A DNA stretch of 58,829 nt from a virus: IMG/VR virus record IMGVR_UViG_3300045988_093898, positions 1-58,829 of that record, one strand, 5' to 3'. Made by a program: the position numbers and the translations under genes. Positions 12,588-53,815 of this stretch are shown here, one piece after another. How positions within the stretch are numbered: the first letter of the stretch is position 1; each line of letters starts with the position of its first letter. The notes beneath the pieces were generated by a model. That model was given only the letters and a program-made list of their open reading frames with translations. It did not search any database and had not been told where the DNA came from.

Positions 12588-13280
12588 ATGAAAATGACTA
12601 CAAAGTATGCAAAAAGCATTAGTTATGGAAATAAAAGACCATTAAGTAATATCAAATACATTGTGATACATTACACAGGCAATAAAGGAGATACGGCACA
12701 GAATAATCTTGATTATTTTGCAAATGGCAATACAAGACAGGCAGGAGCACATTTCTTTGTTGATAAAAAAGGAAAAGTCGGCAAGTCAATAGCAATGAGC
12801 CGTACAGCATGGGCGGTAGGTGGCGACCACAGAAGCGGAAGAAAAGGCGAAGCGGCTTATTTTGGCAAATGTACAAACGCAAACTCAGTGTCTATTGAAT
12901 TATGCGATATGTGCTTAAAAACAAACTGGGAACAGATGTATGCGACAAGAAAACTTGTTAAATACATTCAAAGTAAGTGCCCTAATGCAAAAACAATTAT
13001 CAGACATTGGGATGTAAACGGAAAAGATTGTCCAGCACCTTTTATAGGCAATGGTAACGAGAAATGGACTGAATTTAAGCGTTTTATAACAGCAGGCTAT
13101 AAATTTACGGCGGTTGTTACAAAACATGCGGCATTAAGAAGTAAACCGAAATTGGGGGCAGTAAATAAAAAAGGTACTGCAAAAAAAGGAACAAAAGTTA
13201 AGATTGTCAAACTCAATGGGAATTGGGGACTTACTGACAACGGATATTGGATAAGTCTTGAAAAAGTAAAAGAGATTTAA
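12588..13280 (+). CDS. N-acetylmuramoyl-L-alanine amidase endolysin (Amidase_2/PGRP fold + SH3b-like C-terminus)
   Basis: Motifs IVIHYTGN, AHFFVD, SIELC, IRHWDVNGKDCPAPF. C-terminal KGTKVKIVKLNGNWG...GYWISL. Confidence 0.85.
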   Translation: MKMTTKYAKSISYGNKRPLSNIKYIVIHYTGNKGDTAQNNLDYFANGNTRQAGAHFFVDKKGKVGKSIAMSRTAWAVGGDHRSGRKGEAAYFGKCTNANSVSIELCDMCLKTNWEQMYATRKLVKYIQSKCPNAKTIIRHWDVNGKDCPAPFIGNGNEKWTEFKRFITAGYKFTAVVTKHAALRSKPKLGAVNKKGTAKKGTKVKIVKLNGNWGLTDNGYWISLEKVKEI

Positions 13281-13295
13281 TCAGAATGAGGTGAT

Positions 13296-16200
13296 TTGAT
13301 GGAATTAGATAGTTTAGAACTGAAAGTATCGGCAGAAGCACAGTCGGCAGAAAAAGCACTTGACAGCCTTATAGGTAAATTGCAGAGTTTTTCGGAAGCA
13401 CTTGGCGGTATAAACACTACTTCCATCAGTAAAAACCTTGAAAATCTTGCTAAAGTCGGCGGCTTGAAAACTATCACTAAAGAGGTAGAGGACTTAGGAA
13501 AAACTGTAGACAATGTCGGTAAGAAGAAAACAAAGACTGAGGTTAAAGTCGATGTTAAGCAAGGGTTAGAAGCTATAAAGGAATTACAAAGCAAGTTTTC
13601 CAATATAGGTAAAGGAACACAATTTAACGGCAATTTAAGCAGTTTAGAAAAAGAATATGATAAATTGTCGGCTAAGCTAGATAAACTTGCTGAAAGAGAA
13701 CAGAAAGCACTTGCAATAGGAACTGCATCAACAAACGATAAGGCGTTTCAAAGTTTACAATACGATATTGCTAACACAATAAACAAACTAGCAGAACTTG
13801 AAACAAAGATACAAAGTGTTAAAAACCAAAATACATCTCAAACAGCTAATATACCGATTTTTAGATGGGACAATCAAAATACAGGCAGTACACAAAATAT
13901 TACAGAGAATATTGAGAAGTCACTTAAAAGCATTCCTGAAACCGCAAAATATTCGGTAGAGCAAGCACAGAAATCATTAAATGAAGCTATATCTAAAGTG
14001 CAAAATGCACAGACGAATGTTGAAGATTTTTCGCAAAGAATATCACAGGCTAGAGCTAATCTTAAAAATGTTGAAGTGAGCGGCAAAGGCATGGGTACCG
14101 ATGAATGGGATAGAGCCTATATTGCTTTGCAAAAAGTTGTTTCAGAAGCTAAGCAATATAAAGCGGCTTTAAATGAGCGTGCAACAGGTATCAATACAGA
14201 TATAAGCGAGACAGACAGTCTTGATACTAAGGTTAATAAACTGAGAGAAGATTTAAAGCAGTTAAAAGCGGATGGATTTGGTTTTGGTGATACCACATTT
14301 GACAAAACATATCAGCAACTTAATCAAGCTGAAAAAGAACTTGCAGAGTACAAAGCTAGACTGACAGAAAGCGAAACATCGACAAGAAGTTTTAGCAGTA
14401 CATTAAAGAGTGCGGCAACAGGTTTTTCTAATTTTATCAGTAAGATTAAAAATGCTGGTGCGGCAACATTGAATTTTGCTAAGAATGTCCGTAACATGAA
14501 ATCGCCTTTGAAACTTGCACTCGGTCAAATTAGTAAATTAGGAAATTCGGTTGCAAGGCTGTATTTCAAGTACATGATGCTGTCAAGGGTTGCTGGTGCA
14601 CTTGGTAAAGTTCTTGGTATATCAAGTGATTATGTTGAGGAATACAACTATTTTCAAAAGGCAATAGACAAGATTGCACAGGAAAATAAAGGCAATTACA
14701 AAAAATACGGCTATGATAATGCTAAGAGTTATGCGGATAGCTTTGAGGATAGACTTACAACTCTTACAGGCAAAATGACAGGATATAAGCCCGATAAAAA
14801 TGGAAATCTTATAGATACTGATACGGCAAGTCTTGGGCTTGATATTACACAGGTTACAAACTTTGAAGCTCAAATCGCACAAATGACAAACTCTGTCGGA
14901 ATGATGGGTGAGGCATCTATTGCAACCTCAAAAGCCATGACAATGCTTGCTGGGGATATGTCCTCATTAACAAATATGCCACTCGACACCGTTATGAAAA
15001 ACTTTTCAAGTGGTCTTTCGGGTGCGGCAATGGCTGTCAAAAAATACGGCATGGACATATCAGTTGCAGCATTACAGGAAACAGCACTTGGGCTAGGTGT
15101 TAAGAAAAATGTTTCTGATATGACACAGGCTGAGAAAGAGTATTTGCGTGTTATCACTATGTTACAGCAGTCTAAAGTAGCATGGGGCGACTTAGCAGAC
15201 ACAATAAATCAACCAGCAAACCAGTTTAGAATGTTAAAATCAAACATTAAGCAATGTGGTTTGATGTTATCAAGATTATTTATGCCTGTCATACAAAAAG
15301 TATTACCGTGGTTAAATGCAATGGCAATGGCTGTTAAAGACTTAATGAAACATATCGGTGATTTGTTTGGTTTAAAGTTTGATAGCAGTCTTGGTTCAAC
15401 AGGCAGTGACACATCAGATACCTATGACGATGTATCAGACAGTGCCGACAATGCGGCAGATAGTATAAATGATGCGGCAGATGCACAGAAAAAGTTTAAT
15501 AAGCAGTTACAGGGATTTGATAAGTTAAATAATCTTACGACAAATGAAACATCTAAGAAAGACAGTGACAAGGATAAAAACGGCACAGGAAATGTTAGCG
15601 GCGTATTATCTGATGCTCTTATAAATGCTGTCGAGGATTATGAAAAACGCTGGAATAAAGCGTTTAAAAGCATGACAAGTGATGCTGATAACCTCAAAGA
15701 AAAGATTGAAAAATTATTTACAACAGCTTGGGACACAGGTGACGGAACAGAAATCGGTGAAGCACTTGCGACAACCTTAAATAAGGGCATTGACTGGGTG
15801 AATAATAATACAGACAAGTGGACTAAAGGACTTAAAAAGATTACAAGTATCATGGGTACATCTTTGAATGGTTTTGTTAAAAAGTTCAAATGGGATGGTC
15901 TCGGAAAAGCTGTTGGAAATTCGATTAAAGGAGTGCTTGAAGCAGAAACAAACTTTTTTAAAAAAGTAAACTGGGTAAATCTTGGAAAAGGTTTGTCAAG
16001 TACACTTAATTCAGCTATAAAAACAGGAGTTTTGCAGTCGTACTTTAAATCAATGGCAAGTAAGCTAAGGGCGGCTATTGAGACAGCGTTTGGAGCAATT
16101 ACTACTTTTGATTTTAAAGGACTTGGAAATGCGTTAGGACAGGGAATAAATGACTTTTTTAAGACAATGAATAAGAAAAATAAGCAGACTGGTCTTAATG

Positions 16201-18263
16201 GATGGCAAGAACTTGGAAAAAGTTTAAGTGATGGCATAAAAGGCATTGCAGATACATTAACTACAGCTTTAAAAAAGGTGAAGTGGGAGAAAGTCGGTCA
16301 AAGTATTGGAGATTTTATCTCAGCTATTGATTTTGGCAAGGTTACTTGGAGCTTATTAGGTTTAGCAAAAGCGTTGGTCAGTGCGATAGGCTCAGCTCTC
16401 AAAGGTTCATTTTCAAAAGCACCTATTGAGACAGGTTTATTGGCGGCATTTGCATTGGTAAAATACACTGGTATAGGAAAGTTTATTGCTGGCGAAGTTT
16501 CTAAGAAAATGGCGGCTTTTTTAGCTGAAAAAATGGGTTTTGAAATCGCAAAAGACGCAGGAATAAGCACAGCCATCAAAACAGGGCTTAAAGGGCTTAT
16601 AGCAAAAGCAGGCTTAACAAGTTTAAGTGTTTCAGTAGGTGTAGTTGGGATAGCTGCGGCAACAGCGGCGTTGGTAACTTTCTATAACTATGTAGAAAGC
16701 AAAGCTGATGAAAAAATAAAGTTAGATATATCAGAAGCTAATAAGGCATTAGGTGACTTAAATTCATCAGCGAAAGAATGTGAAAAAGCGGTCAACAAAA
16801 CTAAAGATGCTTTAAAGAAAGTTGAAGCAAGAGACGAAAATGCTCAAAAAAAGGGAAAAGACCTTGAAGTATTAGCAAATGCTTATTATAAATTATCGAA
16901 AAAAGTTAATAAAACCAAAGGTGAACAAGAAACTTTAAAGAGAATGTCGAAAGAGCTTTCAAAACAAATGCCCGGACTTAAAAAGAATATCGACAAAGAA
17001 ACTGGAGCGTATAAAGGAAGTTATAAACAGCTTAAAAAACTTGTTGAAAAAACGAAAGAGTATTACAAAGCGAAAGCTGCGCAAAAAGACCTTGAAGATA
17101 TTGGAAAAAAACTTTATGAAAACGAAAAGGATTTAGCAAAAGCGGCAAATGATGCAAAGAAAGCGGAAGCTATATTAAAGAACGAAAGAATAAATCTTGT
17201 AAATCAGACAAAAAGATTAAATGAACTTGAAGAAAAAAACTTAAAATGGAAAAGTGGCTCAGCTTCAATGACCAAATCCGAATATACGGAAATGGAAAAA
17301 TTGCGTACAGAAGTGCCGAAACTTGCACAAAAATTACAAGACCAAGAAAAAGTTTATAAAAACCACAAAAAGGAACTTGGGGCACTTAAAGACACACAAC
17401 AAGAACTCAATGAAAAGTATAATACAGCTTCTGACTATGTAGAGAAATATACAAAAAAGGTAGACAGTAATACTACTAGCACCAATAAGCAAAAAGACGC
17501 TATAAAAGGTGTTGGGGAAGAAACCGATAAATTGTCAGGCAAAAAAGCTACTGTATCTATAAATTCCAAAGGAGTTGAAAAGACTAAAAAAGATATTGAC
17601 GGTATAACGAGTAAAAAAGTTAAAGTTACCGCAAATGCCAAAAAAGGTAAAAATTTTGATAAAACAAAAAAGGATTATGACGATTTTAAGACTAAAAATG
17701 CAAATATAAAGCTAAATGTAAAAAATGCAGACAAGTTAAAGGAAGTTGTGAAAAATCCGTTGCTAACCGATATAGGTAAGAAAAGCACAATAAAAAGGAA
17801 TGTAGAGATTACTTTTAAGATGAAAAACAATTTCACTGACAATCTCTCTGATTTTTTAAATAAAATTTCGACTGGAAGCAAACCTAAAAAGAAAGCAAAA
17901 GGCGGTATCTTTGAAAACGGCTCATGGCATAACATAGCTAAGTATGCAAGCGGCGGTATGCCGAACATGGGGCAGTTATTTGTAGCAAGAGAAAAAGGTC
18001 CTGAGCTTGTAAGTACATTAAAAGGTCATACTGCGGTTATGAACAATGACCAAATAGTTGCGTCGGTATCTCAAGGTGTGTCAGATGCGGTATATAATGT
18101 TATGACACCTGTTTTAACAAGTCTTGTAACAAGTATAAACCGCATGAATAGTAGCGGCACTCCTTTGTATGTCGAGGGTGTTTCTGAGGGCGATATAGTT
18201 AAGATAACACAGAATGCTAATGCTGATTACAAGAAGCGGTATGGCAAACCTCTTTTCACTTAG
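13296..18263 (+). CDS. tape measure protein
   Basis: 1655 aa, coiled-coil rich with central hydrophobic segments, positioned after the chaperones. Confidence 0.9.
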   Translation: MMELDSLELKVSAEAQSAEKALDSLIGKLQSFSEALGGINTTSISKNLENLAKVGGLKTITKEVEDLGKTVDNVGKKKTKTEVKVDVKQGLEAIKELQSKFSNIGKGTQFNGNLSSLEKEYDKLSAKLDKLAEREQKALAIGTASTNDKAFQSLQYDIANTINKLAELETKIQSVKNQNTSQTANIPIFRWDNQNTGSTQNITENIEKSLKSIPETAKYSVEQAQKSLNEAISKVQNAQTNVEDFSQRISQARANLKNVEVSGKGMGTDEWDRAYIALQKVVSEAKQYKAALNERATGINTDISETDSLDTKVNKLREDLKQLKADGFGFGDTTFDKTYQQLNQAEKELAEYKARLTESETSTRSFSSTLKSAATGFSNFISKIKNAGAATLNFAKNVRNMKSPLKLALGQISKLGNSVARLYFKYMMLSRVAGALGKVLGISSDYVEEYNYFQKAIDKIAQENKGNYKKYGYDNAKSYADSFEDRLTTLTGKMTGYKPDKNGNLIDTDTASLGLDITQVTNFEAQIAQMTNSVGMMGEASIATSKAMTMLAGDMSSLTNMPLDTVMKNFSSGLSGAAMAVKKYGMDISVAALQETALGLGVKKNVSDMTQAEKEYLRVITMLQQSKVAWGDLADTINQPANQFRMLKSNIKQCGLMLSRLFMPVIQKVLPWLNAMAMAVKDLMKHIGDLFGLKFDSSLGSTGSDTSDTYDDVSDSADNAADSINDAADAQKKFNKQLQGFDKLNNLTTNETSKKDSDKDKNGTGNVSGVLSDALINAVEDYEKRWNKAFKSMTSDADNLKEKIEKLFTTAWDTGDGTEIGEALATTLNKGIDWVNNNTDKWTKGLKKITSIMGTSLNGFVKKFKWDGLGKAVGNSIKGVLEAETNFFKKVNWVNLGKGLSSTLNSAIKTGVLQSYFKSMASKLRAAIETAFGAITTFDFKGLGNALGQGINDFFKTMNKKNKQTGLNGWQELGKSLSDGIKGIADTLTTALKKVKWEKVGQSIGDFISAIDFGKVTWSLLGLAKALVSAIGSALKGSFSKAPIETGLLAAFALVKYTGIGKFIAGEVSKKMAAFLAEKMGFEIAKDAGISTAIKTGLKGLIAKAGLTSLSVSVGVVGIAAATAALVTFYNYVESKADEKIKLDISEANKALGDLNSSAKECEKAVNKTKDALKKVEARDENAQKKGKDLEVLANAYYKLSKKVNKTKGEQETLKRMSKELSKQMPGLKKNIDKETGAYKGSYKQLKKLVEKTKEYYKAKAAQKDLEDIGKKLYENEKDLAKAANDAKKAEAILKNERINLVNQTKRLNELEEKNLKWKSGSASMTKSEYTEMEKLRTEVPKLAQKLQDQEKVYKNHKKELGALKDTQQELNEKYNTASDYVEKYTKKVDSNTTSTNKQKDAIKGVGEETDKLSGKKATVSINSKGVEKTKKDIDGITSKKVKVTANAKKGKNFDKTKKDYDDFKTKNANIKLNVKNADKLKEVVKNPLLTDIGKKSTIKRNVEITFKMKNNFTDNLSDFLNKISTGSKPKKKAKGGIFENGSWHNIAKYASGGMPNMGQLFVAREKGPELVSTLKGHTAVMNNDQIVASVSQGVSDAVYNVMTPVLTSLVTSINRMNSSGTPLYVEGVSEGDIVKITQNANADYKKRYGKPLFT

Positions 18264-18328: not shown

Positions 18329-19147
18329 ATGAGAAAAAGTTTTTTTACAAAGATTGTAGCATTTTTAGGGATAGCAACTCTTGTTATTTCCAGTACCTAT
18401 ACTACATCTTATGCAATATGTAATCACAGATGGGTTTTAGATTCTAGTTTTAGTGAAAAACCCACATGTTCTGAGGCGGGTTATAATTGGTATGATTGCT
18501 CTATTTGCGGCGATTCTAAGAAAGTGACTGTTCCAGCGACAAGAATACATAAATGGACGGAGTGGAAAGCTGATGGTTATTTATGTGAGGATGGAAAGTG
18601 GGAAAGATATTGCACTGAATGTTACAAAGAAGAAACAAAAGCAAGACAAGGTGATGGCTCACATTTATGGTCTAATTGGGAAGTGTGGACAGAAGCTGAC
18701 TGTTTAAACAAAGGACAGGAAAGCAGATATTGTTATAATTGCTCTCAAAGAGAATACAAGGATATTCCAGTTGATGACACAAAACATGATTGGAGTAGTT
18801 GGAGTACATTGTGGGATGAAAGTGTAGAACCTACAATTTTTAAAAGTGGAAAACAGACAAGACATTGTTATACTTGTTCAAAAATAGAAATAAAGAAAAT
18901 ACCTAAATTAAAGGCAACAGTTTTAATATCATGCAAGAGCAAAACTTTAAAAGTAGGTGAAAAGCTGAAATTAAAAATAAAGAAAAGAACTTATCCTGAT
19001 GTATTGAAAAGTTGGACTACTGACAACAAAAAAGTTGCTAAAGTCAATAAAAAAGGAAAAGTTTTGGCTGTTAAAAAAGGGAAAGCTACGATAACTTTAA
19101 AAATGAAAAGTGGTTGCACAGCAACTTGCAAGGTAAAAGTTAAATAA
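18329..19147 (+). CDS. secreted Cys-rich repeat protein with C-terminal Big_2 (bacterial Ig-like) domain
   Basis: Signal peptide MRKSFFTKIVAFLGIATLVISS. Four ~40-aa repeats of H.W..W....C...G...R.C..C. C-terminal KVAKVNKKGKVLAVKKGKATITLK is typical of Big_2. Confidence 0.62.
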   Translation: MRKSFFTKIVAFLGIATLVISSTYTTSYAICNHRWVLDSSFSEKPTCSEAGYNWYDCSICGDSKKVTVPATRIHKWTEWKADGYLCEDGKWERYCTECYKEETKARQGDGSHLWSNWEVWTEADCLNKGQESRYCYNCSQREYKDIPVDDTKHDWSSWSTLWDESVEPTIFKSGKQTRHCYTCSKIEIKKIPKLKATVLISCKSKTLKVGEKLKLKIKKRTYPDVLKSWTTDNKKVAKVNKKGKVLAVKKGKATITLKMKSGCTATCKVKVK

Positions 19148-19171
19148 AACAAATATCATATAAAACCACAA

Positions 19172-19196
19172 GGCGGATTTAATATCCGTCTTTTTT
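19172..19196 (+). terminator. rho-independent terminator
   Basis: Stem ggcggat/atccgtc followed by T6. Confidence 0.65.
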
Positions 19197-19234
19197 AGTA
19201 CAATCAAAAAACTTGAAAAAATTTAAAAAAGGTA

Positions 19235-19263
19235 TTGACTTTCTGTGGCTACAGTATTATATT
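19235..19263 (+). promoter_or_regulatory. promoter of RHH cassette 1 (TTGACT, 17-nt spacer, TATATT)
   Basis: Read directly. The upstream A-rich block ttgaaaaaatttaaaaaagg is homologous to 47476-47500. Confidence 0.55.
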
Positions 19264-19296
19264 TATTGTAGCGACAAAAAGAAAAGAGGTGATAAG

Positions 19297-19476
19297 ATGT
19301 CGCCAAGAACAGGCAGACCAAAATCTGATAACAGTAAAGATGTAATGTTTAGAGTTCGCCTTGATAAAGATATGGTTGAAAAACTGGAAAAGGCTTCGGA
19401 AAACTTAAATATTACAAAATCAGATGTTGTCAGAAACGGTATTGAAAGTGAATACCAAAGGTCTATAAAAAAATAA
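19297..19476 (+). CDS. ribbon-helix-helix (CopG/Arc-like) regulator, paralog of 47562..47729
   Basis: MSPRTGRPKSDNSKDVMFRVRLDKDMVEKLEKASENLNITKSDVVRNGIE: a beta-strand followed by two helices. RBS AGAGGTG. Confidence 0.7.
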   Translation: MSPRTGRPKSDNSKDVMFRVRLDKDMVEKLEKASENLNITKSDVVRNGIESEYQRSIKK

Positions 19477-19541
19477 GAACAGTTACATCACCCTGAGAAA
19501 GTACGCAACTGTTCTAACAACAACCCTATAAAGGAATTGAT
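19467..19541 (-). ncRNA. predicted cis-antisense small RNA (about 75 nt) between the RHH gene and the downstream gene
   Basis: A minus-strand promoter at 19548-19576 points into hairpin 19477-19514, which on the minus strand is followed by a T-run. The same arrangement is conserved at 47719-47827. Confidence 0.5.
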
Positions 19542-19547
19542 AAATAT

Positions 19548-19576
19548 ATTCTATCATTACTTTATAGGGAAATCAA
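19548..19576 (-). promoter_or_regulatory. minus-strand promoter TTGATT, 17-nt spacer, TAGAAT
   Basis: The plus strand reads attcta (19548-53) and aatcaa (19571-76). Both hexamers and the 17-nt spacing are conserved in cassette 2 while the spacer sequence differs. Confidence 0.5.
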
Positions 19577-19604
19577 GCAAATTTTGAAAGCGAGGTAGAA
19601 TATT

Positions 19605-19979
19605 ATGACAAAAGCAGAATTAGAAGAAAAAGCAGACCGCATGGAATATCAGTTAGACTTAGAGAAAACAAGGAAAGAAATCATTGAAATGGTAAACGGA
19701 TGTAGTTCGCTTATAACTCTTAAAGAAATGAAAGGAAATGTCAAAGAATTGTATCGCAGACATACTACAGACTGGGTAAATGTAGCGTTAAGGGATAATC
19801 TTTGCGACCTTGCCAAACAGTTGTCAGACAATTACGAATATGAAATATTGAGAAATATAAATGTTATGCTCTATGCAATGGTTTTGAAAAATGGAAAAAT
19901 TGACACTGACAGCCTTTTTCTTACACCGTACATGGAAAGTATGAAACAAAAACGCAATATACAAGGGGGTGCAGCATAA
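19605..19979 (+). CDS. hypothetical protein (124 aa), translationally coupled to the antirepressor gene
   Basis: RBS GAGGT. Its stop overlaps the next start (TAATG at 19977-19981). Confidence 0.55.
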   Translation: MTKAELEEKADRMEYQLDLEKTRKEIIEMVNGCSSLITLKEMKGNVKELYRRHTTDWVNVALRDNLCDLAKQLSDNYEYEILRNINVMLYAMVLKNGKIDTDSLFLTPYMESMKQKRNIQGGAA

Positions 19980-20764
19980 TGAATGAGATAAATAATGTAA
20001 TAGATATGAAAACTCCGATTGAGATTGCTTTACAGATTGATGAAAGCGGTCACACTACAGCGAGAGCATTGTATGATTTTTTGGAGCTTGCACCAAGTCA
20101 GTTTTCAAGATGGGCTAAAACCAATATTGAGAGTAATGAGTTTTATGAAGAAAATAAAGATTGGTGGGGGTTCGACATTATGTTGAACGGTAATAAATGT
20201 AAGGATTATCGACTTACAACAGATTTTGCGAAGCATCTATCTATGGAAAGTCATTCTGCCAAGGGCAAGACAGCAAGGCAGTATTTTGTTAAGGTAGAAG
20301 ATAAAGTAAAGGAAGTTGTAATCAATCGTTCTCAGTTATCTCCACAGATGCAGATGTTTTATGCAATAGCAGACGAACAGGCTAAAATGGAGCTTGAACA
20401 AAAACGGCAGGCAGAGCAGATAAATAAAGTTGAGCAGACAGTTGACAACATGAAAGAGATATTCACAGAGCCTATCGGAGATTGGAAAGCCGAAATAAAT
20501 TCAAGGGTTCGTGAAATATCAATCAAGAGTAACATTGACTATCAGACACTTTATAATCAGCTTTACGGCGAACTGGAGACAACAGCACATTGCAGTCTTA
20601 AAAGATTACAGGATAACAAGAAAAAGCGTATGGAAAAGGCAGGCAATACAAAGACTGCTATTAAACAGGAAACTACAAAAATTGCAATTATATACGAAAA
20701 GCCACAACTTAAAGCAATATTTGAAAATATAGTCAAGAAATATGCTATGAGTTATTGTGCATGA
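19979..20764 (+). CDS. AntA-type phage antirepressor-like protein
   Basis: N-terminal ...TARALYDFLELAPSQFSRWAKTNIESNEFYEENKDWW... resembles the AntA domain. The C-terminal half is coiled-coil. Confidence 0.6.
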   Translation: MNEINNVIDMKTPIEIALQIDESGHTTARALYDFLELAPSQFSRWAKTNIESNEFYEENKDWWGFDIMLNGNKCKDYRLTTDFAKHLSMESHSAKGKTARQYFVKVEDKVKEVVINRSQLSPQMQMFYAIADEQAKMELEQKRQAEQINKVEQTVDNMKEIFTEPIGDWKAEINSRVREISIKSNIDYQTLYNQLYGELETTAHCSLKRLQDNKKKRMEKAGNTKTAIKQETTKIAIIYEKPQLKAIFENIVKKYAMSYCA

Positions 20765-20800
20765 TATGAAATTATGTGATACATAGATATGATAATAAAA

Positions 20801-20828
20801 GGACAGAACTACATATTCTGTCCTTTTT
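20801..20828 (+). terminator. rho-independent terminator
   Basis: Stem ggacagaa/ttctgtcc followed by T6. Confidence 0.7.
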
Positions 20829-20872
20829 TGATGCAAAAAATCATTAACCTTAAAAAGTTTAGAGGTAGAATT

Positions 20873-21322
20873 ATGGCATTTTCAAAGAGTAAAGGTCTTG
20901 TTTCTATTGCTACAGGCTATAGCGGTGGAAATTACGAATACACAAAGATAGACCAATTTATTGCGGCAGATAATTTAAGTATCACCGCTGACAGGGCACA
21001 GGATTTAGATAGTTATGTCAATGCAAACGGTCATTTAAAAAGAAATGTTTTAAAGCATATGCGTGATGGCATATCTTTTTCAACGGTCTATATGGGGTAT
21101 GACAAAAAAGAAAACTTTATGACTATCATTCGCAAAGCTATGAAACAAAAGGATTGTGCAGAGCCACCCGAAAAGAAAGTTCGTGTTAGGTACTTTAATG
21201 AATGGACTAATGATTACGAAACAGGATTTTTCTATATACCGGATGTTGAATGGAAATATGGTGGTACATATAAGGGAACACCGACATATTTGCCTACGAC
21301 ATTTGAGTTAATAGAGTATTAG
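20873..21322 (+). CDS. distal tail protein candidate
   Basis: 149 aa, the first structural gene after the tape measure and moron island. RBS AGAGGT. Confidence 0.4.
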   Translation: MAFSKSKGLVSIATGYSGGNYEYTKIDQFIAADNLSITADRAQDLDSYVNANGHLKRNVLKHMRDGISFSTVYMGYDKKENFMTIIRKAMKQKDCAEPPEKKVRVRYFNEWTNDYETGFFYIPDVEWKYGGTYKGTPTYLPTTFELIEY

Positions 21323-21334
21323 CGAGGTGAGACG

Positions 21335-24139
21335 ATGCTTAATCTTACAGATAGTGAAAAAGAGTGCTTTTACGGCAGAGGAACTTATTTTAATGACTAT
21401 GAATTTAATTTTTCTGATTTGAATTTTACAATAACAAATGAGACATTACATCAAGAGTCAGTAACTATTAAAGAAAGTATATGTGATAGTGAAGATTTAC
21501 AGTTAGGCGGTTGTATTGCATCCTCATGTGAATTTGAGGTATCGGAGCTTGAAAACAATCAGCTTGCAGGATTGGAGTTTACAGCAAAATTACTTGTAAA
21601 TGATGGTAAAGACGTAGTTGTAAAAATGGGTAAATATCGTGTGGATTCTGCAAAAAGAGTTAATGATAAAGACTATAGAAAAATTGTTGCTTATGATGCT
21701 TTATACGATGCACAAATAGATGTTTCCGACTGGTATAACAAAGTTTTCTATGTAGTATCTGAATATGAAGAAGTAGTTGCAATCGGAGATATTGATGATT
21801 TATGGGAACACGGAGACTATTATATTGATAATTCGGGAAGTAAACCACCTTGGATAGCGTTTTTTGCGAATGGTGCAGTACCCGAAGAATGTCAAGATAC
21901 AACATATCTTGATACATCAACAGGCAAATTATACGAAGCACAAAATACAAGTAAAGACGAAGATAACGAATTATATCGTTGGGTTGAAGTGTATCAATGT
22001 AAAAGGAAAACAACCACGAAGCGTATTTACGCAAAAACAACATTAAAAAAACTAAGAGAAAGTCTTTTAAATCACTTGAACATTTCTTTTATAGAACAGG
22101 ATTTAATAAATGATGATGTAACTATCGAGAGGACATTTGATGCTAGCGATACTGGTGAAATCATCGGCACAGATATACTAAAATACATTTGTGAATTAAA
22201 TGCTGGATTTGGAAAAATAAATCGTGATGGAAAATTTGAAGTAATTCAATTGACAAGTGCGGGGTTATATCCCGAAGAAACATTGTACCCATCTGAGGAT
22301 TTATACCCCGAAGAAAGCAATTATGAGCTTTTAAGTGCAGAAGAAAACGAAGCTAATTATATTTCTGTAGCTTATGAAGAATATGAAACAGAAGCTATTA
22401 CGGGTGTTATAGTAAAAAGCAATAGTGATAATGTTGGTCAAGTTGTAGGAACAAAAGATAATGCTTATATGCTTACTGGAAATCCTTTGATATACAATAA
22501 GACCTCAGAAGATTTAACAAAAATCGGACAAAATATATTTGCAAAAATAAAAGGAATTACATACAGACCAAACACAACAACTTTAGAGGGGTTGCCGTAC
22601 TTAGAAACAGGCGATTATTATATTCTGACAAAAAACAATGACGATGTAGGTTCACCTATATTTACAAGGACATTGGCAGGAGTACAAGCGTTAAAAGATA
22701 CGTTTGAAAGCAAGGGAAATAAACTAAGAGTAAACGAAGATAGTCAAACGTCAGAAATGATGACTTTACAGTCAAAAATGCTTAAAATTCAAAAAGGTGT
22801 TGACGGACTGTTGATAGAGGTTACAGACCTTGACGAAAATACAAGTTCAAGATTTGAACAGACAGCAAATAAGATTGAAGCTGAGGTTATAAGAGCAAGC
22901 AATGCCGAAGGAGAACTTTCGGGCAGACTGACAATTACGGCAGATGCAATTACACAGGAAGTCACCAGGGCGAAAGCCGAAGAAGCAACATTGAGCGGTA
23001 GAATAAATGTCACAGCGGAACAAATTACAGCCGAAGTAAAAAGAGCCGAGAACGAAGAAAATAGCATAAGAACAGCACTTACATTAAAGGCTGACAGTGC
23101 AGAACTGGGATATTACCAGACAAAAGCTGATATGACAAATTATGCTACGACTACTTGGGCTGAGAATCAGATAAGTAGCAAAGTGTCGAAAGGGGATGTA
23201 TGCAGCGAGATAAATCAATCATCAGAGCAGATTATTTTGAAGTCAAATAGGCTTGTTATCGACAGTACAAATTTTAAATTAGATGCAAACGGTAACGCAG
23301 ATTACAGAGGAAACATATCTGCCAGTGATGCTAAATTTTATAACATAACAGGCTTTGGAGGAATGATAAGCATTATCTCTGGAAGCAGTTTTTCAGCGGG
23401 AACAGGCGGCTACCAAAGAGATACTTATGGATATATCAAGGTACATAGTGATGATGGTACAGCAAACTGTTATGTTGAAAGTGATAAACTTATAGGAGAC
23501 ACAATAGAAGCCGGAAGAATCAACGGTTCAACTGGATACTTAGAATTGCACGGTTACACAAAAGCAAAAATGTTTGTATTTAACGATGAAGCATACGGCA
23601 TTGTTCTCGATATGAATAGTAATCGTGATTTGCATTTAAGACCAGCATCTAACGAAGATACAGACTGCGGTTCAGCATCTTATAAATGGCGAAATTTGTA
23701 TTGTAAAAATGGCACTATACAAACATCTGACAGAAACGAAAAAATGAACATATCGGATATGTCAGAACAATATGCAAATGCAATTATTGATGATGCTTCA
23801 CCAAAAACATATATGATGCTTAACAATGAAAGCGGAAGAACTCATGCAGGAATGATAGCACAGGATTTAGAAGAACAGTTATCAAAAAACGGTATGAGTT
23901 CAAAAGATTTTGCAGGGTTCATAAAATACGAAAAAGAAGATACTAACGGAGTTCCAACAAGTGAATACGGCTATGGAATACGCTACGAGGAATATATAGC
24001 ACCGCTTATTAAGTATTCTCAGTGTTTAAAAAGAGATTTGAAGCAGGAAATAGAGAGAAATCAGCAGTTACAATTTCAACTTTTAAATTTACAAGGTGAA
24101 TTTACAATATTAAAACAACAGATTTTAGGAGGAAAATAA
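21335..24139 (+). CDS. tail-associated / tail fibre protein with C-terminal peptidase S74 intramolecular chaperone domain
   Basis: 934 aa. C-terminal TSDRNEKMNI...THAGMIAQDLEEQL...YGIRYEEYIAPLIK matches the S74 autoproteolytic chaperone signature (Ser-Asp-x-x-x-Lys). Confidence 0.72.
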   Translation: MLNLTDSEKECFYGRGTYFNDYEFNFSDLNFTITNETLHQESVTIKESICDSEDLQLGGCIASSCEFEVSELENNQLAGLEFTAKLLVNDGKDVVVKMGKYRVDSAKRVNDKDYRKIVAYDALYDAQIDVSDWYNKVFYVVSEYEEVVAIGDIDDLWEHGDYYIDNSGSKPPWIAFFANGAVPEECQDTTYLDTSTGKLYEAQNTSKDEDNELYRWVEVYQCKRKTTTKRIYAKTTLKKLRESLLNHLNISFIEQDLINDDVTIERTFDASDTGEIIGTDILKYICELNAGFGKINRDGKFEVIQLTSAGLYPEETLYPSEDLYPEESNYELLSAEENEANYISVAYEEYETEAITGVIVKSNSDNVGQVVGTKDNAYMLTGNPLIYNKTSEDLTKIGQNIFAKIKGITYRPNTTTLEGLPYLETGDYYILTKNNDDVGSPIFTRTLAGVQALKDTFESKGNKLRVNEDSQTSEMMTLQSKMLKIQKGVDGLLIEVTDLDENTSSRFEQTANKIEAEVIRASNAEGELSGRLTITADAITQEVTRAKAEEATLSGRINVTAEQITAEVKRAENEENSIRTALTLKADSAELGYYQTKADMTNYATTTWAENQISSKVSKGDVCSEINQSSEQIILKSNRLVIDSTNFKLDANGNADYRGNISASDAKFYNITGFGGMISIISGSSFSAGTGGYQRDTYGYIKVHSDDGTANCYVESDKLIGDTIEAGRINGSTGYLELHGYTKAKMFVFNDEAYGIVLDMNSNRDLHLRPASNEDTDCGSASYKWRNLYCKNGTIQTSDRNEKMNISDMSEQYANAIIDDASPKTYMMLNNESGRTHAGMIAQDLEEQLSKNGMSSKDFAGFIKYEKEDTNGVPTSEYGYGIRYEEYIAPLIKYSQCLKRDLKQEIERNQQLQFQLLNLQGEFTILKQQILGGK

Positions 24140-24399: not shown

Positions 24400-25854
24400 A
24401 TGGCAGTAGTAAAGGTTTACACCCGAATAAATTGGCTTAATAAGTCGGAAAGTCTGACAACACCGCTTGGTAAAACAAACTTAAATAAGATGGATAAAGC
24501 AATAGACACCATTGATAACGAAGTAGTATCTATTTCAGCGACTGCGGAAAGCCTTGATACAACAAAAGCCGATAAAGACCAGCTTAACAATATGATAACT
24601 GATATATCTTTTAACGACAAAAATGGTGTTATCAGCATAACAAAATATAACGGTACAGTATTGAATATTGATACCGCAATGGAAAAGATAGCCGTAAACT
24701 TTGAATATAACGCACAGACACAACAACTTATACTTACACTTGAAAACGGTGAAAAGCAATACATTGATATGTCGGCTTTGATTACTCAGTATGAGTTTAA
24801 AGGCACTGATACGATAGCTTTTAGCATTGATAGTGATGGAAAAGTGAATGCGTCTATTAAAAGCGGCAGTATAACAAAAGCTATGCTGTCAAGTGAAGTT
24901 ATGTCGGCTATAACATTATCAGAAAGCAATGCGGTTGCATCGGCACAGGCGGCGTCTCAGTCAGCTACAAATGCTGATATGGACGCTAAGTTATCTCAGT
25001 CGTACAGCGTTGGCAAGAGCGGTATTCGTGATGGCGAAGATACCGACAATGCAAAATACTATTCAGAGCAGGCAGAAAAATTTGCAAAAGAAGCAGAAGA
25101 TATTGTTGGCAGTAATTTTATAACTCAAGCTGAAAAAGGTGTTGCAAATGGTGTAGCTGTCTTAAATGCAAACTTAGCAGTTGAAAAAGCGGTAGCAGAT
25201 GAAGATGGTAACAACATTCAAAATACATATGCTAAAAAGACAGAAATATCAGAAGCTATAGAAGTTGACAGCAAGTTGTCGACAACAAGCACAAATCCAG
25301 TACAGAATAAAATAGTAACTAATGCAATTAACAGTGCAAGTCAACAGGCGGGCAAAGCGAATGGGATTTTAACTCAGTGGCAAGAACAAGGCAGAATACC
25401 AAACGGCATTGCAAACAATCTTGTTACGACAGAAGAGGGATATGTTGCGGATGCAAGACAGCTAAATAAAAGTGTTAAAAATAGCTTTGCGTATGAGATG
25501 GATAAAAGTATCTCCGCGATAAATAACAGTTCAATATGGCAACAAGTGTCACCTAAAAACCTTAGTACACAAGTCGAATGGAATGTTTTCAGACAAAGAA
25601 TAACTACAGCAAGTTCTTTGTGTAATTTAGAATTAAACTTTACAACCAAACAAATATTTTCACGAGGTAACGATTATGAATTAGCCATATTAACAGGTTT
25701 TACACCTAACACACAATGCAATATGTTGATATTTTGTGATACAAATGTTGTAGCTGTAGCTATAAAAAGCGATAAAACAATAACATTACGCCCTTTAAAT
25801 ATGGACATCCCAGCCAATTACCAACTGAGTACACAATGTATATACACATATTAA
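24400..25854 (+). CDS. tail fibre / receptor-binding protein
   Basis: 484 aa. The N-terminal LTTPLGKTNLNKMDKAIDTIDNEV motif is common in Firmicute phage fibres. Last large gene of the tail operon. Confidence 0.68.
   Translation: MAVVKVYTRINWLNKSESLTTPLGKTNLNKMDKAIDTIDNEVVSISATAESLDTTKADKDQLNNMITDISFNDKNGVISITKYNGTVLNIDTAMEKIAVNFEYNAQTQQLILTLENGEKQYIDMSALITQYEFKGTDTIAFSIDSDGKVNASIKSGSITKAMLSSEVMSAITLSESNAVASAQAASQSATNADMDAKLSQSYSVGKSGIRDGEDTDNAKYYSEQAEKFAKEAEDIVGSNFITQAEKGVANGVAVLNANLAVEKAVADEDGNNIQNTYAKKTEISEAIEVDSKLSTTSTNPVQNKIVTNAINSASQQAGKANGILTQWQEQGRIPNGIANNLVTTEEGYVADARQLNKSVKNSFAYEMDKSISAINNSSIWQQVSPKNLSTQVEWNVFRQRITTASSLCNLELNFTTKQIFSRGNDYELAILTGFTPNTQCNMLIFCDTNVVAVAIKSDKTITLRPLNMDIPANYQLSTQCIYTY
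25520..25531. repeat. left copy of 12-bp inverted repeat TAAATAACAGTT (inside the fibre gene, read as N-N-S)
   Basis: The exact reverse complement is at 26181..26192. Confidence 0.8.
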
Positions 25855-25857
25855 ATA

Positions 25858-26217
25858 TTATTTGCAACGATAAAAGAAATTTGCGTATCCTGATAAATGT
25901 ACTCCTTTGGGACAATAAATATTTATATTTCCGTTTAGAGAAATCCATCCATAACTTAAGCAAGGATTTCCTGTTACTGCGTCCCATGAACTTAATGAGA
26001 AATACTGCACTCCGTCTGGAACATGAGATGAGTCGTTTAATACTACAAGCGTTGCCTCTGAACTTGATAAACCAGAATGTTGATAATAAAATGATACAAA
26101 CATCATTTTGTCTTTTTTATCATAAAAAGCATTTAAACCTTTTATTTCAGAAGCAACATTTACAAAAGTGAACTGAGTTAAACTGTTATTTAACAAACAG
26201 AAAATAAGATAAACCAT
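25858..26217 (-). CDS. inverted alternative fibre C-terminal cassette (silent ORF, 119 codons)
   Basis: Converges on the fibre stop with a 3-nt gap. No RBS, and a stop codon sits directly upstream of its ATG. Shares the in-phase N-N-S 12-mer, followed by exactly 107 codons as in the fibre gene. Confidence 0.5.
   Translation of the reverse strand: MVYLIFCLLNNSLTQFTFVNVASEIKGLNAFYDKKDKMMFVSFYYQHSGLSSSEATLVVLNDSSHVPDGVQYFSLSSWDAVTGNPCLSYGWISLNGNINIYCPKGVHLSGYANFFYRCK
26181..26192. repeat. right copy of the 12-bp inverted repeat (AACTGTTATTTA)
   Basis: Exact reverse complement of 25520..25531. Both copies are 325 nt from the symmetry centre at 25856. Confidence 0.8.
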
Positions 26218-26223
26218 TTATTA

Positions 26224-26247
26224 AAGAGCTTCACAGCTCTTATTTTT
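26224..26247 (+). terminator. rho-independent terminator of the tail operon
   Basis: Stem aagagct/agctctt followed by atttttat. Confidence 0.6.
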
Positions 26248-26261
26248 ATACAAAGAAAGGA

Positions 26262-41792: not shown

Positions 41793-41966
41793 TTAAAATA
41801 ACAATAAATGGAAACGAGATAAAAGCAGAGGATGTAACTTTATCTGCCGATATTGTAAAAATCATAACATCATGCCTTGATTGACATTATATTTTAAAAA
41901 GGTTAGAATGTGTCGTAAGTACGATAAATGCGGCACATTCTTTTTATATAAAAGGAGGATTTGAAG

Positions 41967-43340
41967 ATGGAATGTGTTGCGTACATGAGAGTATCAACAG
42001 AAAAACAAGCAGAAGATGGAAACGGGCTGGAAAGCCAAAAAAGAGATATTGATAATTACTGCAATAAGAACGGTTATATAATCAGTGATTACTATATTGA
42101 CGATGGTTATACTGGTGCAAACATGGACAGACCACAGCTGCAACGACTTATCAGCGATTGTGTATCGAAAAGAGTGAAGTGTGTTGTTGCTTTTAAATTA
42201 GACAGGTTGTCACGAAGCATGGTTGATGGAATATATATCATCGAACGAGTGTTTCAAGCAAACAACATCTTGTTTAAATGTGTGCATGACAGTATAAGCT
42301 ACGACAGTCCGATGGAGCAAGCATATACTCAGATGATGGCAGTTTTTGCACAGCTTGATAAAAACACAATGATGTTGCGTATGCGTGGCGGTATGTTGGA
42401 AAGAGTAAAGCAAGGCTACTGGATGGGTGGCGGTAATACTCCTTATTGCTATAAGTATGATAAGGAAAAAGGAATTTTAGTACCTATACCCGAACGGAAA
42501 GAGCAGGCAAATCAAGCATTAGATTTGTTTATCGACGGCTATTCGGATGTTGCAATTAAAAAAATGCTTAATTTTACGCATGAGCATACTGTTAAAATGG
42601 TTTTAACAAGTCCAGTAAACATCGGCATGATACCATATAAGGGCAATTTATATAAAGGTTTGCATGAGCCTATTTTTGATAAAGATAGATTTCAGCTTGC
42701 ACAGGAAGCGAGGAAAAACAGAAGAAAAAAGAAAACAGTTAGCCTCAACAAAGAACCAAATTTATTGACAGGTTTATGTTATTGCGGTGTGTGTGGATGT
42801 AAAATGCGTTATCAAAAATGGGGAAGTGAATCTGATGCACCTAAAAAAATTTACTGTTGCTCACGAAACAAAGATTTATTTTATTTGCCGAATTACAATA
42901 GAGACTGCGATAATTCAATAGAATGGGCTACCGACATTGAAAAACAAGTCGAAGCTGAGATAATAAAAATATCTTTAAATTTGTCATCGCAAAAACCAAT
43001 CGCAAAGCAGAGTAAAATTGATATAATACAGTCGCAAATCAAAAAGGAAAAATATCGCCGCAAAAGGCTTTTTAATCTTTACGCAGATGGAAATGACGAT
43101 GTTTTGAATATAATAAAACAGTCAGACGATACTATCAGTAGTTTAAAAGAACAACTTGAAATTGAATTATTAAGTAAAGAAGCAAATAAAAAGAAAAGTA
43201 TTGCCTATGAGAACATCAAAAAAATTGCCGATGTTTGGGACAGCATCGACAAAAGAAATAAAAATATGATACTTAAAACTATAATTGACAAGATAATAAT
43301 TGTCAATGGAGATATTGAGATACAATTAAAGAATTTTTAG
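41967..43340 (+). CDS. large serine recombinase (integrase)
   Basis: N-terminal AYMRVSTEKQ catalytic motif. About 457 aa with a Cys-rich zinc-ribbon (CYCGVCGCKMRY...YCCSRN) and a coiled-coil C-terminus. Confidence 0.85.
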   Translation: MECVAYMRVSTEKQAEDGNGLESQKRDIDNYCNKNGYIISDYYIDDGYTGANMDRPQLQRLISDCVSKRVKCVVAFKLDRLSRSMVDGIYIIERVFQANNILFKCVHDSISYDSPMEQAYTQMMAVFAQLDKNTMMLRMRGGMLERVKQGYWMGGGNTPYCYKYDKEKGILVPIPERKEQANQALDLFIDGYSDVAIKKMLNFTHEHTVKMVLTSPVNIGMIPYKGNLYKGLHEPIFDKDRFQLAQEARKNRRKKKTVSLNKEPNLLTGLCYCGVCGCKMRYQKWGSESDAPKKIYCCSRNKDLFYLPNYNRDCDNSIEWATDIEKQVEAEIIKISLNLSSQKPIAKQSKIDIIQSQIKKEKYRRKRLFNLYADGNDDVLNIIKQSDDTISSLKEQLEIELLSKEANKKKSIAYENIKKIADVWDSIDKRNKNMILKTIIDKIIIVNGDIEIQLKNF

Positions 43341-43420
43341 CACATACTACACACCATGCCGATGGCAGTATGTTAGTGCTAATACCGTATTTATCGTACT
43401 TTTACAACTAAATAAAATCT

Positions 43421-47454: not shown

Positions 47455-47471
47455 ATATCAGTTGATGGTTT
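47455..47471. repeat. left copy of 17-bp perfect inverted repeat ATATCAGTTGATGGTTT flanking RHH cassette 2
   Basis: The exact reverse complement is at 48174..48190. Confidence 0.85.
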
Positions 47472-48173: not shown

Positions 48174-48212
48174 AAACCATCAACTGATATACTTAGTTGG
48201 TGGTTTTATTTT
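48174..48212 (+). terminator. terminator hairpin whose 5' arm is the right copy of the 17-bp inverted repeat
   Basis: aaaccatcaact (48174-85) pairs with agttggtggttt (48195-206), followed by tattttg. Confidence 0.6.
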
Positions 48213-50164: not shown

Positions 50165-50863
50165 TCAAGATAAAAAAACTGGCGTTTCGCCGTCATAAAG
50201 TTCAGCAAAAACTTTCGTTCCTTTGTCAAGATAGCGGCATCTTATTTTTTCAAAACGCCGAAAACCTTTTTTAGTGTATTCGTATTTTTTGTTTATCAAA
50301 TAAGCTATGCTCGCAATTTTGTTATCAATAAATTGTTCTGGAATATATGCGTTATTTCTTAAAAAACCTATTTTGTTTTTCTTTTCTAATTCTACGACAA
50401 CAATATCATCAACACGAATTAAATCTTCATATCTTCCAAGCGACAAAAAAGTTTTAGGATGTTTTAAAGCGGCGAAAACTTGTTGAAAATCTTCGTCTTG
50501 CGGCTGTATGTATATTTCTAAATTCAAGTCAGATAAAAAGTTGATTTCTTTTATATCTTGGACCCAGCCGACACACTTTCCGTTATTTTCGACGATAATG
50601 TGCCATCTTTTTCTTTGTTCGTCTGTAATTTTTCCGAAATTATAACCACCCTCCCAAATTTTTTGGGTTTCTTGATTAAAAAAACCTTTTCCGGAAACAA
50701 AAAAATTTAAAGGATGGTAACGCTCCCAGCCACAAGCGTGATGAACCATCCCGGAAATAGTAGAAAATGGTGGAAGCGGTAGAATTTCCGGAAATAGTGA
50801 AAAACCATATGGGAACCTTGCAGTTCCCATATACCCCACCATTTTTATAACTTTTAACGCCAT
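50165..50863 (-). CDS. Cas5-like (RAMP) protein, solitary
   Basis: 232 aa. N-terminal GYMGTARFPYGFSLFPEILPLPPFSTISGMVHHACGW and later FLSLGRYEDLIRV resemble Cas5 signature segments. Strong RBS AAGGAGG. Confidence 0.35.
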   Translation of the reverse strand: MALKVIKMVGYMGTARFPYGFSLFPEILPLPPFSTISGMVHHACGWERYHPLNFFVSGKGFFNQETQKIWEGGYNFGKITDEQRKRWHIIVENNGKCVGWVQDIKEINFLSDLNLEIYIQPQDEDFQQVFAALKHPKTFLSLGRYEDLIRVDDIVVVELEKKNKIGFLRNNAYIPEQFIDNKIASIAYLINKKYEYTKKGFRRFEKIRCRYLDKGTKVFAELYDGETPVFLS

Positions 50864-53747: not shown

Positions 53748-53815
53748 ATATTGTACAAATTTTGATAAATTGTAAGATAAACAATAGTTTATCAAAGAGT
53801 TAAAAAAAAGCGGGA

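Follow-up and report, generated by a model that had tools for sequence, protein, structure and literature searches.

A candidate two-state inversion switch at the 3' end of a receptor-binding protein gene in a temperate siphophage from gut Lachnospiraceae

The subject of this study is the tail receptor-binding protein (RBP) gene, or fibre gene, of the IMG/VR virus record IMGVR_UViG_3300045988_093898, whose positions 1 to 58,829 form the stretch of DNA that was analysed (the window: 58,829 bp, 35.5% G+C). The window is a temperate siphophage of spore-forming gut Lachnospiraceae, and we consider it probable, at roughly 0.8, that the 3' end of its RBP gene and a converging open reading frame (ORF) on the minus strand constitute a two-cassette, gene-altering DNA inversion switch. 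Among published systems the one that appears closest is the Rin shufflon of Bifidobacterium and Eggerthella prophages, in which an RBP with a constant N-terminus and an internal crossover site is accompanied by TP901-1-like silent cassettes of 95-100 amino acids (aa), by asymmetric repeats of 11 or 8 bp, and by an adjacent XerD-like tyrosine invertase (rin) that is distinct from the integrase; there are 3-5 cassettes and multiple inversions (Mavrich et al. 2018, PMC6109161; PMC8778435). A second, smaller precedent is found in the tRNA-Met-integrated bifidophages 689b-1 and Bb423phi2, where a recombinase-less inversion of ~500 bp at an 8-bp repeat involves genes of unknown function, and for which the authors proposed an invertase supplied in trans (PMC6109161).

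The locus described here resembles Rin in being carried by a temperate siphophage of a gut Gram-positive host, in the constant RBP N-terminus with its internal site, in silent cassettes of ~95-107 aa that have almost no sequence identity and are fused in frame by inversion, in heads of the TP901-1/p2 type (here according to the model of tip B, the silent head), and in a very short asymmetric repeat placed both within the RBP gene and at the 5' end of the cassette (12-19 bp here). It differs from Rin in having a single silent cassette, with one forward and one reverse site per complete locus among 40 site-bearing loci; in that no adjacent tyrosine invertase was found in the scanned ORFs of the window or among the neighbours in related contigs; in its unrelated site (TAAATRAYAGTTTA here, TTCCCTAACCC in Rin); and in its hosts, which are Firmicutes (Lachnospiraceae) and not Actinobacteria. 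With 689b-1 and Bb423phi2 it has in common the inversion of a small convergent ORF together with the 3' end of a neighbouring structural gene, at a very short repeat and with no flanking recombinase; this likeness is one of design, not of membership by descent. The bifidophage case consists of one genome pair and genes of unknown function, whereas the present locus targets an RBP head, is known in both states for four cassette pairs, has two sites whose core alleles covary, and involves more than ten head families. The additions to that design are its occurrence in Firmicutes phages, an identified target in the RBP head, and replicated evidence with a defined, covarying site. No description of such a switch in Firmicutes phages was found in a limited literature search.

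An earlier reading of the window, made from the sequence only, had likened the locus to the invertible G segment of Mu and C segment of P1. The logic of a constant N-terminus with alternative C-termini holds, but the closest parallel is offered by the Rin-type shufflon of head domains in Gram-positive prophages. As in the Gin, Cin, Pin and Min systems (Mu G, P1 C, e14 P, p15B Min), alternative C-termini are provided in frame through inverted repeats inside the coding sequence, an arrangement that in those systems alters host range. Those systems, however, belong to myophages or elements of Proteobacteria, and have an adjacent small serine invertase, a Fis-dependent enhancer, 26-bp dyad sites in ~34-bp repeats, and segments of 3-4 kb with fibre-assembly chaperone genes. 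The present phage has a host outside the Proteobacteria and lacks a small serine invertase next to the segment (the only protein with a Resolvase domain is a 459-aa enzyme 16 kb away), the arms are identical over only 12-19 nt with no 26-bp dyad site, and the 649-bp segment holds no chaperone gene, only a pair of convergent 107-codon tips separated by 3 nt. The R64-type shufflon (Rci tyrosine recombinase, sfx sites, PilV tips) is similar in its short, partly conserved sites (one arm plus spacer) and in the exchange of a C-terminal adhesin tip, but it serves a plasmid-encoded pilus, comprises multiple segments with rci beside them, and has no sequence relation to the present locus. Finally, the lactococcal RBPs (p2, TP901-1, bIL170) share the predicted fold of tip B and the helical or neck segment that precedes an exchangeable head. 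Engineered chimeras of two RBPs have been solved as structures (PDB entry titles 3d8m, 3da0); in the lactococcal phages, unlike here, head exchange is evolutionary or engineered, and does not proceed through a resident invertible cassette.

Relatives were gathered by scans of IMG/VR, of metagenome contigs and of a protein collection. In what follows, L-numbers denote fetched loci of relatives (1.02 Mb in total) and P-numbers denote entries of the protein collection. The features of the window on which the argument turns are listed below, with the evidence for each in brackets.

24400..25854, plus strand: tail RBP (fibre) gene, 484 aa, with tip A expressed (ORF, location and model matches)
24400..25530, plus strand: constant part, residues 1-377, with an N-terminal anchor, a beta-rich domain and a helical shaft, ending ...SISAINNS (conservation in relatives)
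25519..25534, plus strand: left crossover site ATAAATAACAGTTCAA, core 12-mer at 25520-25531 (all natural inversions break within it)
25531..25854, plus strand: tip A, the expressed C-terminal head of 107 aa, codons 378-484 plus stop (copies in the silent position in L005/L001 and in L126)
25532..26180, no strand: invertible segment, 649 bp between the two 12-mers (reverse-complemented in L005; homologous segment flipped in L126 relative to L127-135)
25858..26181, minus strand: tip B, the silent 107-aa head cassette, with its stop codon at 25858-25860 and codons up to Leu13 of the minus-strand ORF (expressed in L005 and P0006-P0012)
26178..26193, minus strand: right crossover site TTAAATAACAGTTTAA, core 12-mer at 26181-26192, with an internal dyad TTAAA-N6-TTTAA
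26193..26217, minus strand: short leader MVYLIFCLL, which stays put and is joined to whichever tip is silent
26224..26251, plus strand: terminator-like hairpin (26224..26241) and T-run closing the tail operon, downstream of the silent cassette
41961..43340, plus strand: large serine recombinase that serves as the phage integrase and is unlikely to belong to the switch (Pfam domains, adjoining attP)

The RBP gene follows the tape-measure gene and the gene of a 934-aa tail protein with a Peptidase_S74 domain. The minus-strand ORF (25858..26217, 119 aa) converges on it, with 3 nt between the two stop codons. The 12-mer TAAATAACAGTT at 25520..25531 recurs as its exact reverse complement at 26181..26192, and the repeat reaches 15 nt with one mismatch (TAAATAACAGTT[C/T]AA). 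Both copies are read in the same codon phase as AAT-AAC-AGT (Asn-Asn-Ser, NNS), exactly 107 codons follow in each gene, and the symmetry centre of the two copies is at 25856. The positions of the ORFs and repeat copies, the shared phase, the codon counts and the centre had been called by the sequence-only reading and were confirmed, as were the absence of a purine-rich Shine-Dalgarno sequence and the presence of a TAA stop directly before the ATG of the minus-strand ORF; the plus-strand terminator reported beyond this ORF corresponds to the hairpin at 26224..26241. What did not stand is the meaning attached to the mirror symmetry and equal length of the tips: because other cassette pairs are unequal (98/95 and 95/93 aa) and the spacing of the converging stop codons varies (11 nt apart in L010, overlapping by 1 nt in L026), both the 107/107 length and the symmetry are incidental.

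If the segment inverted between the 12-mers, residues 1-377 of the RBP would be placed in frame with the other 107-aa tip, as the sequence-only reading had predicted. We built the corresponding junction from the window, by joining the shaft-proximal flank of the left arm through the 12-mer to the inner flank of the right arm, and scanned it against IMG/VR. An exact match is present in IMGVR_UViG_3300045988_105414 (contig 105414), in which the shaft ...SISAINNS continues into LTQFTFVNVASG... (tip B), and tip A, now in reverse complement, follows the unaltered leader MVYLIFCLLNNS. The contig carries the entire segment in flipped orientation at 99.5% identity, together with the reciprocal junction, and on either side of it the sequence stays collinear with the window; the un-flipped junction was found in two other contigs. 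The protein collection contains ~40 clusters in which the shaft is followed by tip A and at least 7 in which it is followed by tip B, to which L005 is to be added. Tip B is the C-terminus of a 484-aa protein in L005 and in P0006-P0012, and tip A occupies the silent position in L005/L001 and in L126.

Sought in related phage genomes, the flipped orientation was found for four cassette pairs (A/B in two lineages, C/D, and D'/E), with segments 99.5-100% identical and, in three of the four pairs, flanks of 1.1-4.1 kb at 99.95-100% identity. In the first pair (A/B), the window, L004 and L020 stand against L005, where the 649-bp segment is reversed and 99.5% identical. In the second (A/B again, on shaft DNA that near the site is 88.7% identical to that of the window), L126, which expresses tip B, stands against L127-135. 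The left flank of L126 differs from that of L128 by 2 substitutions in 4135 bp (99.95% identity), its right flank matches L129 over 2677 bp and L133 over 2308 bp without a difference (100% identity), and a 673-bp block that includes both repeats is reversed at 99.85% identity; the overlap between the collinear and the reversed alignments is exactly the 15-bp repeat, and the flipped and unflipped shaft proteins (P0012 and P0093) show 0 differences in 377 residues. The third pair (D'/E) is represented by L026 and L116, with a 564-bp segment reversed at 100% identity and a right flank identical over 1155 bp (100%). In the fourth (C/D), L139-141 express D while L010/L142-144 express C, and the segment is reversed at 99.8% identity. 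The breakpoints fall in the repeat in every natural inversion. The flipped and unflipped contigs retrieved come each from a different sample, and the contigs are drawn from different repositories and assembly sets (IMG/VR, ENA, Logan). A separate observation concerns P0005 (72 aa, from an 889-bp ENA contig), in which leader plus tip B (33 residues) is followed by an unrelated hydrophobic sequence; it represents either a chimeric short contig or another rearrangement within tip B.

The arms common to all cassette-bearing loci read (A/T)TAAAT-R-A-Y-AGTT(T/C)A(A/G), for which we propose a layout with an outer arm (A/T)TAAA, a central hexamer TRAYAG, and an inner arm TT(T/C)A(A/G). Identity between the arms extends over 12-19 nt, and the outer and inner flanks are unrelated: the outer ones are constant (...GCGA from the shaft codons at the left arm, ...TTGT from the short leader at the right arm), and the inner ones belong to the tip attached there. 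The site TAAATRAYAGTTTA is found in the RBP gene and at the 5' end of the silent cassette in all complete cassette-bearing loci; in 14-nt form it occurs in 40 loci of the 1.02 Mb fetched, and every complete locus has exactly one forward and one reverse copy. In the window the core is present at the two arms only, besides a match with 1 mismatch at 53778. The site is not forced by the peptide, because cassette-less relatives use different codons for the junction peptide: their junction region (ALNNA), ...SISALNNALTPFTF..., is encoded by TTAAACAATGCC... and does not contain the site.

Three core alleles, TAAATAACAGTTTA, TAAATGACAGTTTA and TAAATGATAGTTTA (with centres TAACAG, TGACAG and TGATAG), are present, and in every locus the two arms are identical; no mixed-allele arm pair was seen among the cassette-bearing loci. 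As an example, TGACAG/TGACAG is found on C/D cassettes that are otherwise 2 substitutions per ~600 bp away from a TAACAG/TAACAG locus, while the TGATAG/TGATAG pair is that of L146. Both variable positions lie within the central hexamer, between the invariant TAAA and TTTA, which in the right arm are part of the TTAAA-N6-TTTAA dyad. Since positions in the silent leader escape protein selection, the matched alleles suggest that partner sites must be identical, or else that they are converted within a heteroduplex, as would befit a strand-exchange overlap. One extra copy of the core pattern (TAAATAATAGTTTA) was noticed at position 1749 of L148 (contig 105414, just past a Cas5b-like ORF that is described below), in AT-rich intergenic DNA; it has no inverted partner in the 2.7 kb covered and is probably a chance match.

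The fibre is the tail RBP, as follows from its fold matches, its gene position and its Jekyll-like N-terminus, and its head is the part that the cassette exchanges. The only cultured relative that came up is Roseburia phage Jekyll, one of whose proteins shares 51.5% identity with the N-terminus. The constant part is 89-99% identical among relatives with a wide range of tips. Sequence searches of Pfam, NCBIfam and PDB with the fibre returned 0 matches; its sole PHROG match, phrog_17196, is labelled 'kinase', which looks like a mislabel. In the AlphaFold2 model of the flipped protein P0007 (from a 27-sequence alignment) the shaft is poor, whereas residues 378-484 reach a predicted local distance difference test (pLDDT) score of ~90. 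Tip B is modelled as a beta domain of ~eight strands, preceded by a helix (363-377) that ends exactly at Ser377 of NNS, which would place the crossover at the boundary between helix and beta domain. In a Foldseek search of the PDB, the model of tip B matched the RBP heads of the lactococcal phages p2 (2bse_A, template modelling (TM) score 0.64 on target, root-mean-square deviation (rmsd) 3.9 A), TP901-1 and bIL170, gp15 of Listeria phage PSA (poorly superposed, at an rmsd of ~15 A), and, less strongly, the fibre knobs of adenovirus and reovirus; the structure matches in BFVD were tail fibre proteins and lactococcal RBPs.

Tips A and B share no detectable sequence similarity, and profile-profile comparison of tips A, B, C, D and F gave no similarity either, D and G being the only related ones. 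The AIN(N/D)S joint carries more than ten unrelated head families, flanked by the same core, and families silent in one phage turn up as the expressed head of another. Because the heads are dissimilar and tip B is predicted to have a saccharide-binding head fold, a flip would be expected to change the host receptor recognised by the progeny virions. A diversity-generating retroelement as the source of the variation was set aside, as no scanned ORF matched reverse transcriptase families and the tips are unrelated to each other, not variants of a template.

That the minus-strand ORF is a silent cassette, as the sequence-only reading had it, is borne out by lineages whose cassette has no ATG leader and by a relative that keeps only a deletion scar. 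The leader is replaced by an ATG-less sequence in L020, L117 and L126, and other leaders are present in L146, L147 and L019; no promoter-like site was found upstream of the ORF in the window. L120 (OGRR01000020.1) has the left site and an expressed tip of 114 aa, and its silent cassette is reduced to a scar ~470-560 nt after the left site, in which the leader MVYFIFSL is fused to the last residues of tip B (...LFYHCK), with the terminator hairpin kept. Because L120 retains only this scar, the silent copy appears to be dispensable and liable to loss, which would lock the phage in one state; L120 has the look of a decayed, locked switch. The terminator-like hairpin is absent at the equivalent place in cassette-less relatives.

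In the mechanism that we propose, the constant part of the RBP (residues 1-377) would end at a boundary between helix and head that is itself encoded by the crossover site. Downstream, in order, stand the expressed tip A, a promoter-less tip B placed tail to tail with it and starting with the inverted site, and the operon terminator. Conservative recombination within the identical core of 12-17 bp would reverse the 649-bp segment, so that the shaft would be fused in frame to the other head and the earlier head would move to the silent position. The flip would be carried out by a site-specific recombinase supplied in trans, more likely of the tyrosine type, and the switch would alter host range.

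A candidate enzyme was sought by scanning 47 ORFs of the window (all those of at least 170 aa, plus many shorter ones) with Pfam, PHROGs and NCBIfam; the tail genes at 13296-18263 and 18329-24139 were scanned separately. The only recombinase among the scanned ORFs is the XisF-like large serine recombinase of 459 aa, 16 kb from the segment (Pfam Resolvase, Recombinase and Zn_ribbon_recom), which agrees with what the letters had suggested. The Phage_integrase family had 0 matches in the scanned ORFs of the window or in the recorded neighbours in related contigs, and the records of 15 related contigs show no recombinase family in the 2-10 kb around the cassette. We identify the large serine recombinase as the phage integrase. 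Its attP lies at ~43341-43380 (GCACATACTACACRCCATGCCGATGGCAGTATGTTAGTGC), directly downstream of the gene, with CCGATG immediately preceding the prophage junction; a number of IMG/VR contigs terminate 24-27 nt past the stop codon of the gene, and in a 155.7-kb host scaffold the phage sequence ends at ...CCATGCCGATG, after which comes the sporulation sigma-factor gene that precedes spoVAA-AB-AC. In the prophage form of ENA ERZ28566260 scaffold_58 (L136 11340-14100) the element interrupts this sigma-factor gene, at a sigF-like position directly upstream of spoVAA-spoVAB-spoVAC. A recombinase at a prophage junction in a sporulation gene is an arrangement that resembles the skin element. Circular or virion-form contigs are represented by L137 and L138.

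Outside the phage, megablast of the locus against GenBank phages gave 0 matches, and so did a search of GTDB genomes for exact copies of the left-arm pattern. A protein-seeded genome scan identified Butyribacter intestini and one Lachnospiraceae metagenome-assembled genome as the only relatives, both with other, cassette-less tips; these establish the host family, but provide no invertase candidate. The prophage family is present in many gut metagenome assemblies from several repositories.

Since no invertase was detected in the phage, we infer that the most likely catalyst of the flip is a recombinase provided in trans by the host or a co-resident element. A tyrosine-type enzyme is favoured, because the variable positions fall in the central hexamer, between constant dyad arms, and are always matched between partner sites. 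A more specific version would be an orphan host-range switch, in which a 16-bp core with dyad arms and a 6-bp overlap is flipped by a recombinase that is not encoded by the phage, for instance a housekeeping or phase-variation tyrosine recombinase of the host; we hold this version tentatively, at slightly less than even odds.

Repeat statistics are of little help in this context. Perfect inverted repeats of at least 12 nt, 100-1000 nt apart, amount to ~10 distinct pairs in the window, and in Markov-1 simulations a mean of 7.35 12-mer inverted pairs is expected. As these numbers prove nothing, the case rests on geometry and on the comparative data. Another inverted repeat is a perfect one of 17 nt (47455-47471 / 48174-48190, ATATCAGTTGATGGTTT), with an imperfect extension to ~29 nt, which flanks ~700 bp containing a 73-aa ORF (with a weak RepB-RCR_reg Pfam match in the copy of L137) and a 104-aa ORF. 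Considered as a second switch, it showed no evidence of flipping, its predicted inverted junction being absent from IMG/VR. Further perfect inverted repeats are of 15 nt (51396-51410 / 52358-52372) and of 13 nt (22456-22468 / 23366-23378, within the gene of the 934-aa tail protein).

Several points weigh against the inversion switch and should be considered together. Taken alone, the 12-nt inverted repeat is not above chance in an AT-rich window. The evidence consists of orientation polymorphism between near-identical genomes of different samples, all of them metagenomic assemblies, and the orientation is skewed, with ~40 clusters that express tip A and ~8 that express tip B. The conserved core is short (~15-16 bp, with 5-bp arms), and the TTAAA/TTTAA dyad could be due to chance in AT-rich DNA. 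The model of tip A has a pLDDT of 37, from too shallow an alignment, and receptor specificity is read from the predicted fold of one head, tip B. The tyrosine-type and in-trans assignments are built on site anatomy and on negative searches.

Some of these points would equally suit a history in which rare flips arise independently of a recombinase, by short homology or template switching at the repeats of 12-17 bp, and are then selected, such that the two orientations are evolutionary variants and not phase variation. Besides the missing invertase, the between-sample nature of the evidence, and the skewed orientation, there is a PD-(D/E)XK/DUF3799 nuclease of the phage that hints at a recombination module. 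However, four cassette pairs are flipped on backgrounds only 0-2 substitutions apart over 1-4 kb, and this implies many events in a short time at a repeat of 12-15 bp. Moreover, the short core is kept at both ends of more than ten unrelated cassettes, its three alleles are always arm-matched even at synonymous positions, and equally long inverted repeats of the window show no such behaviour, the junction test of the 17-nt repeat being negative. We therefore judge such recombinase-independent flips unlikely.

Even if the inversion switch is accepted, its enzyme could be the large serine recombinase of the phage, acting both as integrase and as RBP invertase. It is the only recognisable recombinase in the window, it is present in both full-length cassette-bearing contigs that were checked (105414 and 070266), and a phage-encoded enzyme would make the switch self-contained. 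On the other hand, neither attP nor the attR junction shares anything with the inversion core TTAAATRAYAGTTTAA, and the enzyme is 95-99% identical in eight relatives that have neither cassette nor site; by presence and absence it was rejected as the invertase, being equally present in cassette-less relatives. Large serine recombinases use att sites of ~40-50 bp, exchange strands with a 2-bp overlap, and are unidirectional without a directionality factor, while the inversion site is ~16 bp long and has two covarying positions 2 nt apart, which is unlike such att requirements. A dual role of the enzyme is in our judgement very unlikely, and an XisF-like large serine integrase that flips DNA at a site unlike its own att would be the less likely and more surprising version of the switch.

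Two further possibilities have practically no weight. The first, that the minus-strand ORF is an ordinary independent gene and the 12-mer a chance match or a shared peptide motif, could appeal to the insignificance of a 12-nt inverted repeat in the window and to gene callers, which annotate the ORF as a protein of 116-119 aa, but is already contradicted by the exact inverted junction and the reversed segments, and also by the finding of its 107 C-terminal residues at the C-terminus of full-length RBPs in many contigs, by a leader that is unconserved or ATG-less and preceded by neither Shine-Dalgarno sequence nor promoter-like site, and by the other codons with which cassette-less relatives encode the junction motif. 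The second, that the flipped contigs are assembly artefacts at an inverted repeat, is prompted by data that are all metagenomic assemblies, yet both junctions of each state recur in contigs of different samples and assembly sets, and a repeat of 12-19 nt is below the k-mer lengths usual in metagenome assemblers and should not create graph ambiguity.

Elsewhere in the window, a few genes are of note for their position or affiliation. An Amidase_2 (N-acetylmuramoyl-L-alanine amidase) gene at 12588-13280 is found just upstream of the gene of the 1655-aa tape-measure protein, and an AntA-type antirepressor gene at 19979-20764 lies within the tail module, both being unusual positions; no holin/endolysin pair was seen 3' of the fibre gene. 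A solitary, divergent Cas5b-like protein of 232 aa is encoded at 50165-50863 on the minus strand, in a small minus-strand module without other cas genes. It matches NCBIfam TIGR01895 over its full length with E=6e-18, which is under the curated cut-off, and Pfam Cas_Cas5d with E=2e-3; it could be a moron or an anti-CRISPR-type decoy. Relatives of this ORF in IMG/VR were found only in contigs 105414 and 070266, both of which are full-length and cassette-bearing. As a cassette-linked invertase it was rejected, since it is no recombinase, and its co-occurrence with the cassette was read as a lineage effect.

Lachnospiraceae are among the most abundant commensals of the human gut, and very few of their phages have been cultured. 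The inversion of RBP heads in this phage family offers a well-replicated instance of a phage inversion switch without a cognate invertase, something suggested earlier only from one bifidophage genome pair, and the covarying core alleles define a compact site that is usable in the hunt for the responsible enzyme. The locus is also a natural design for the swapping of RBP heads at a defined joint between helix and head. A two-state RBP switch would affect the prediction of host range from metagenomes, and would explain why near-identical prophages carry different RBP C-termini. If the flip is indeed in the hands of a recombinase that is not encoded by the phage, the recombinase activity of the host would decide which receptor is targeted by the released virions, and the same sites might permit prophages that share a host cell to exchange cassettes, a process that would account for a pool of more than ten head families.

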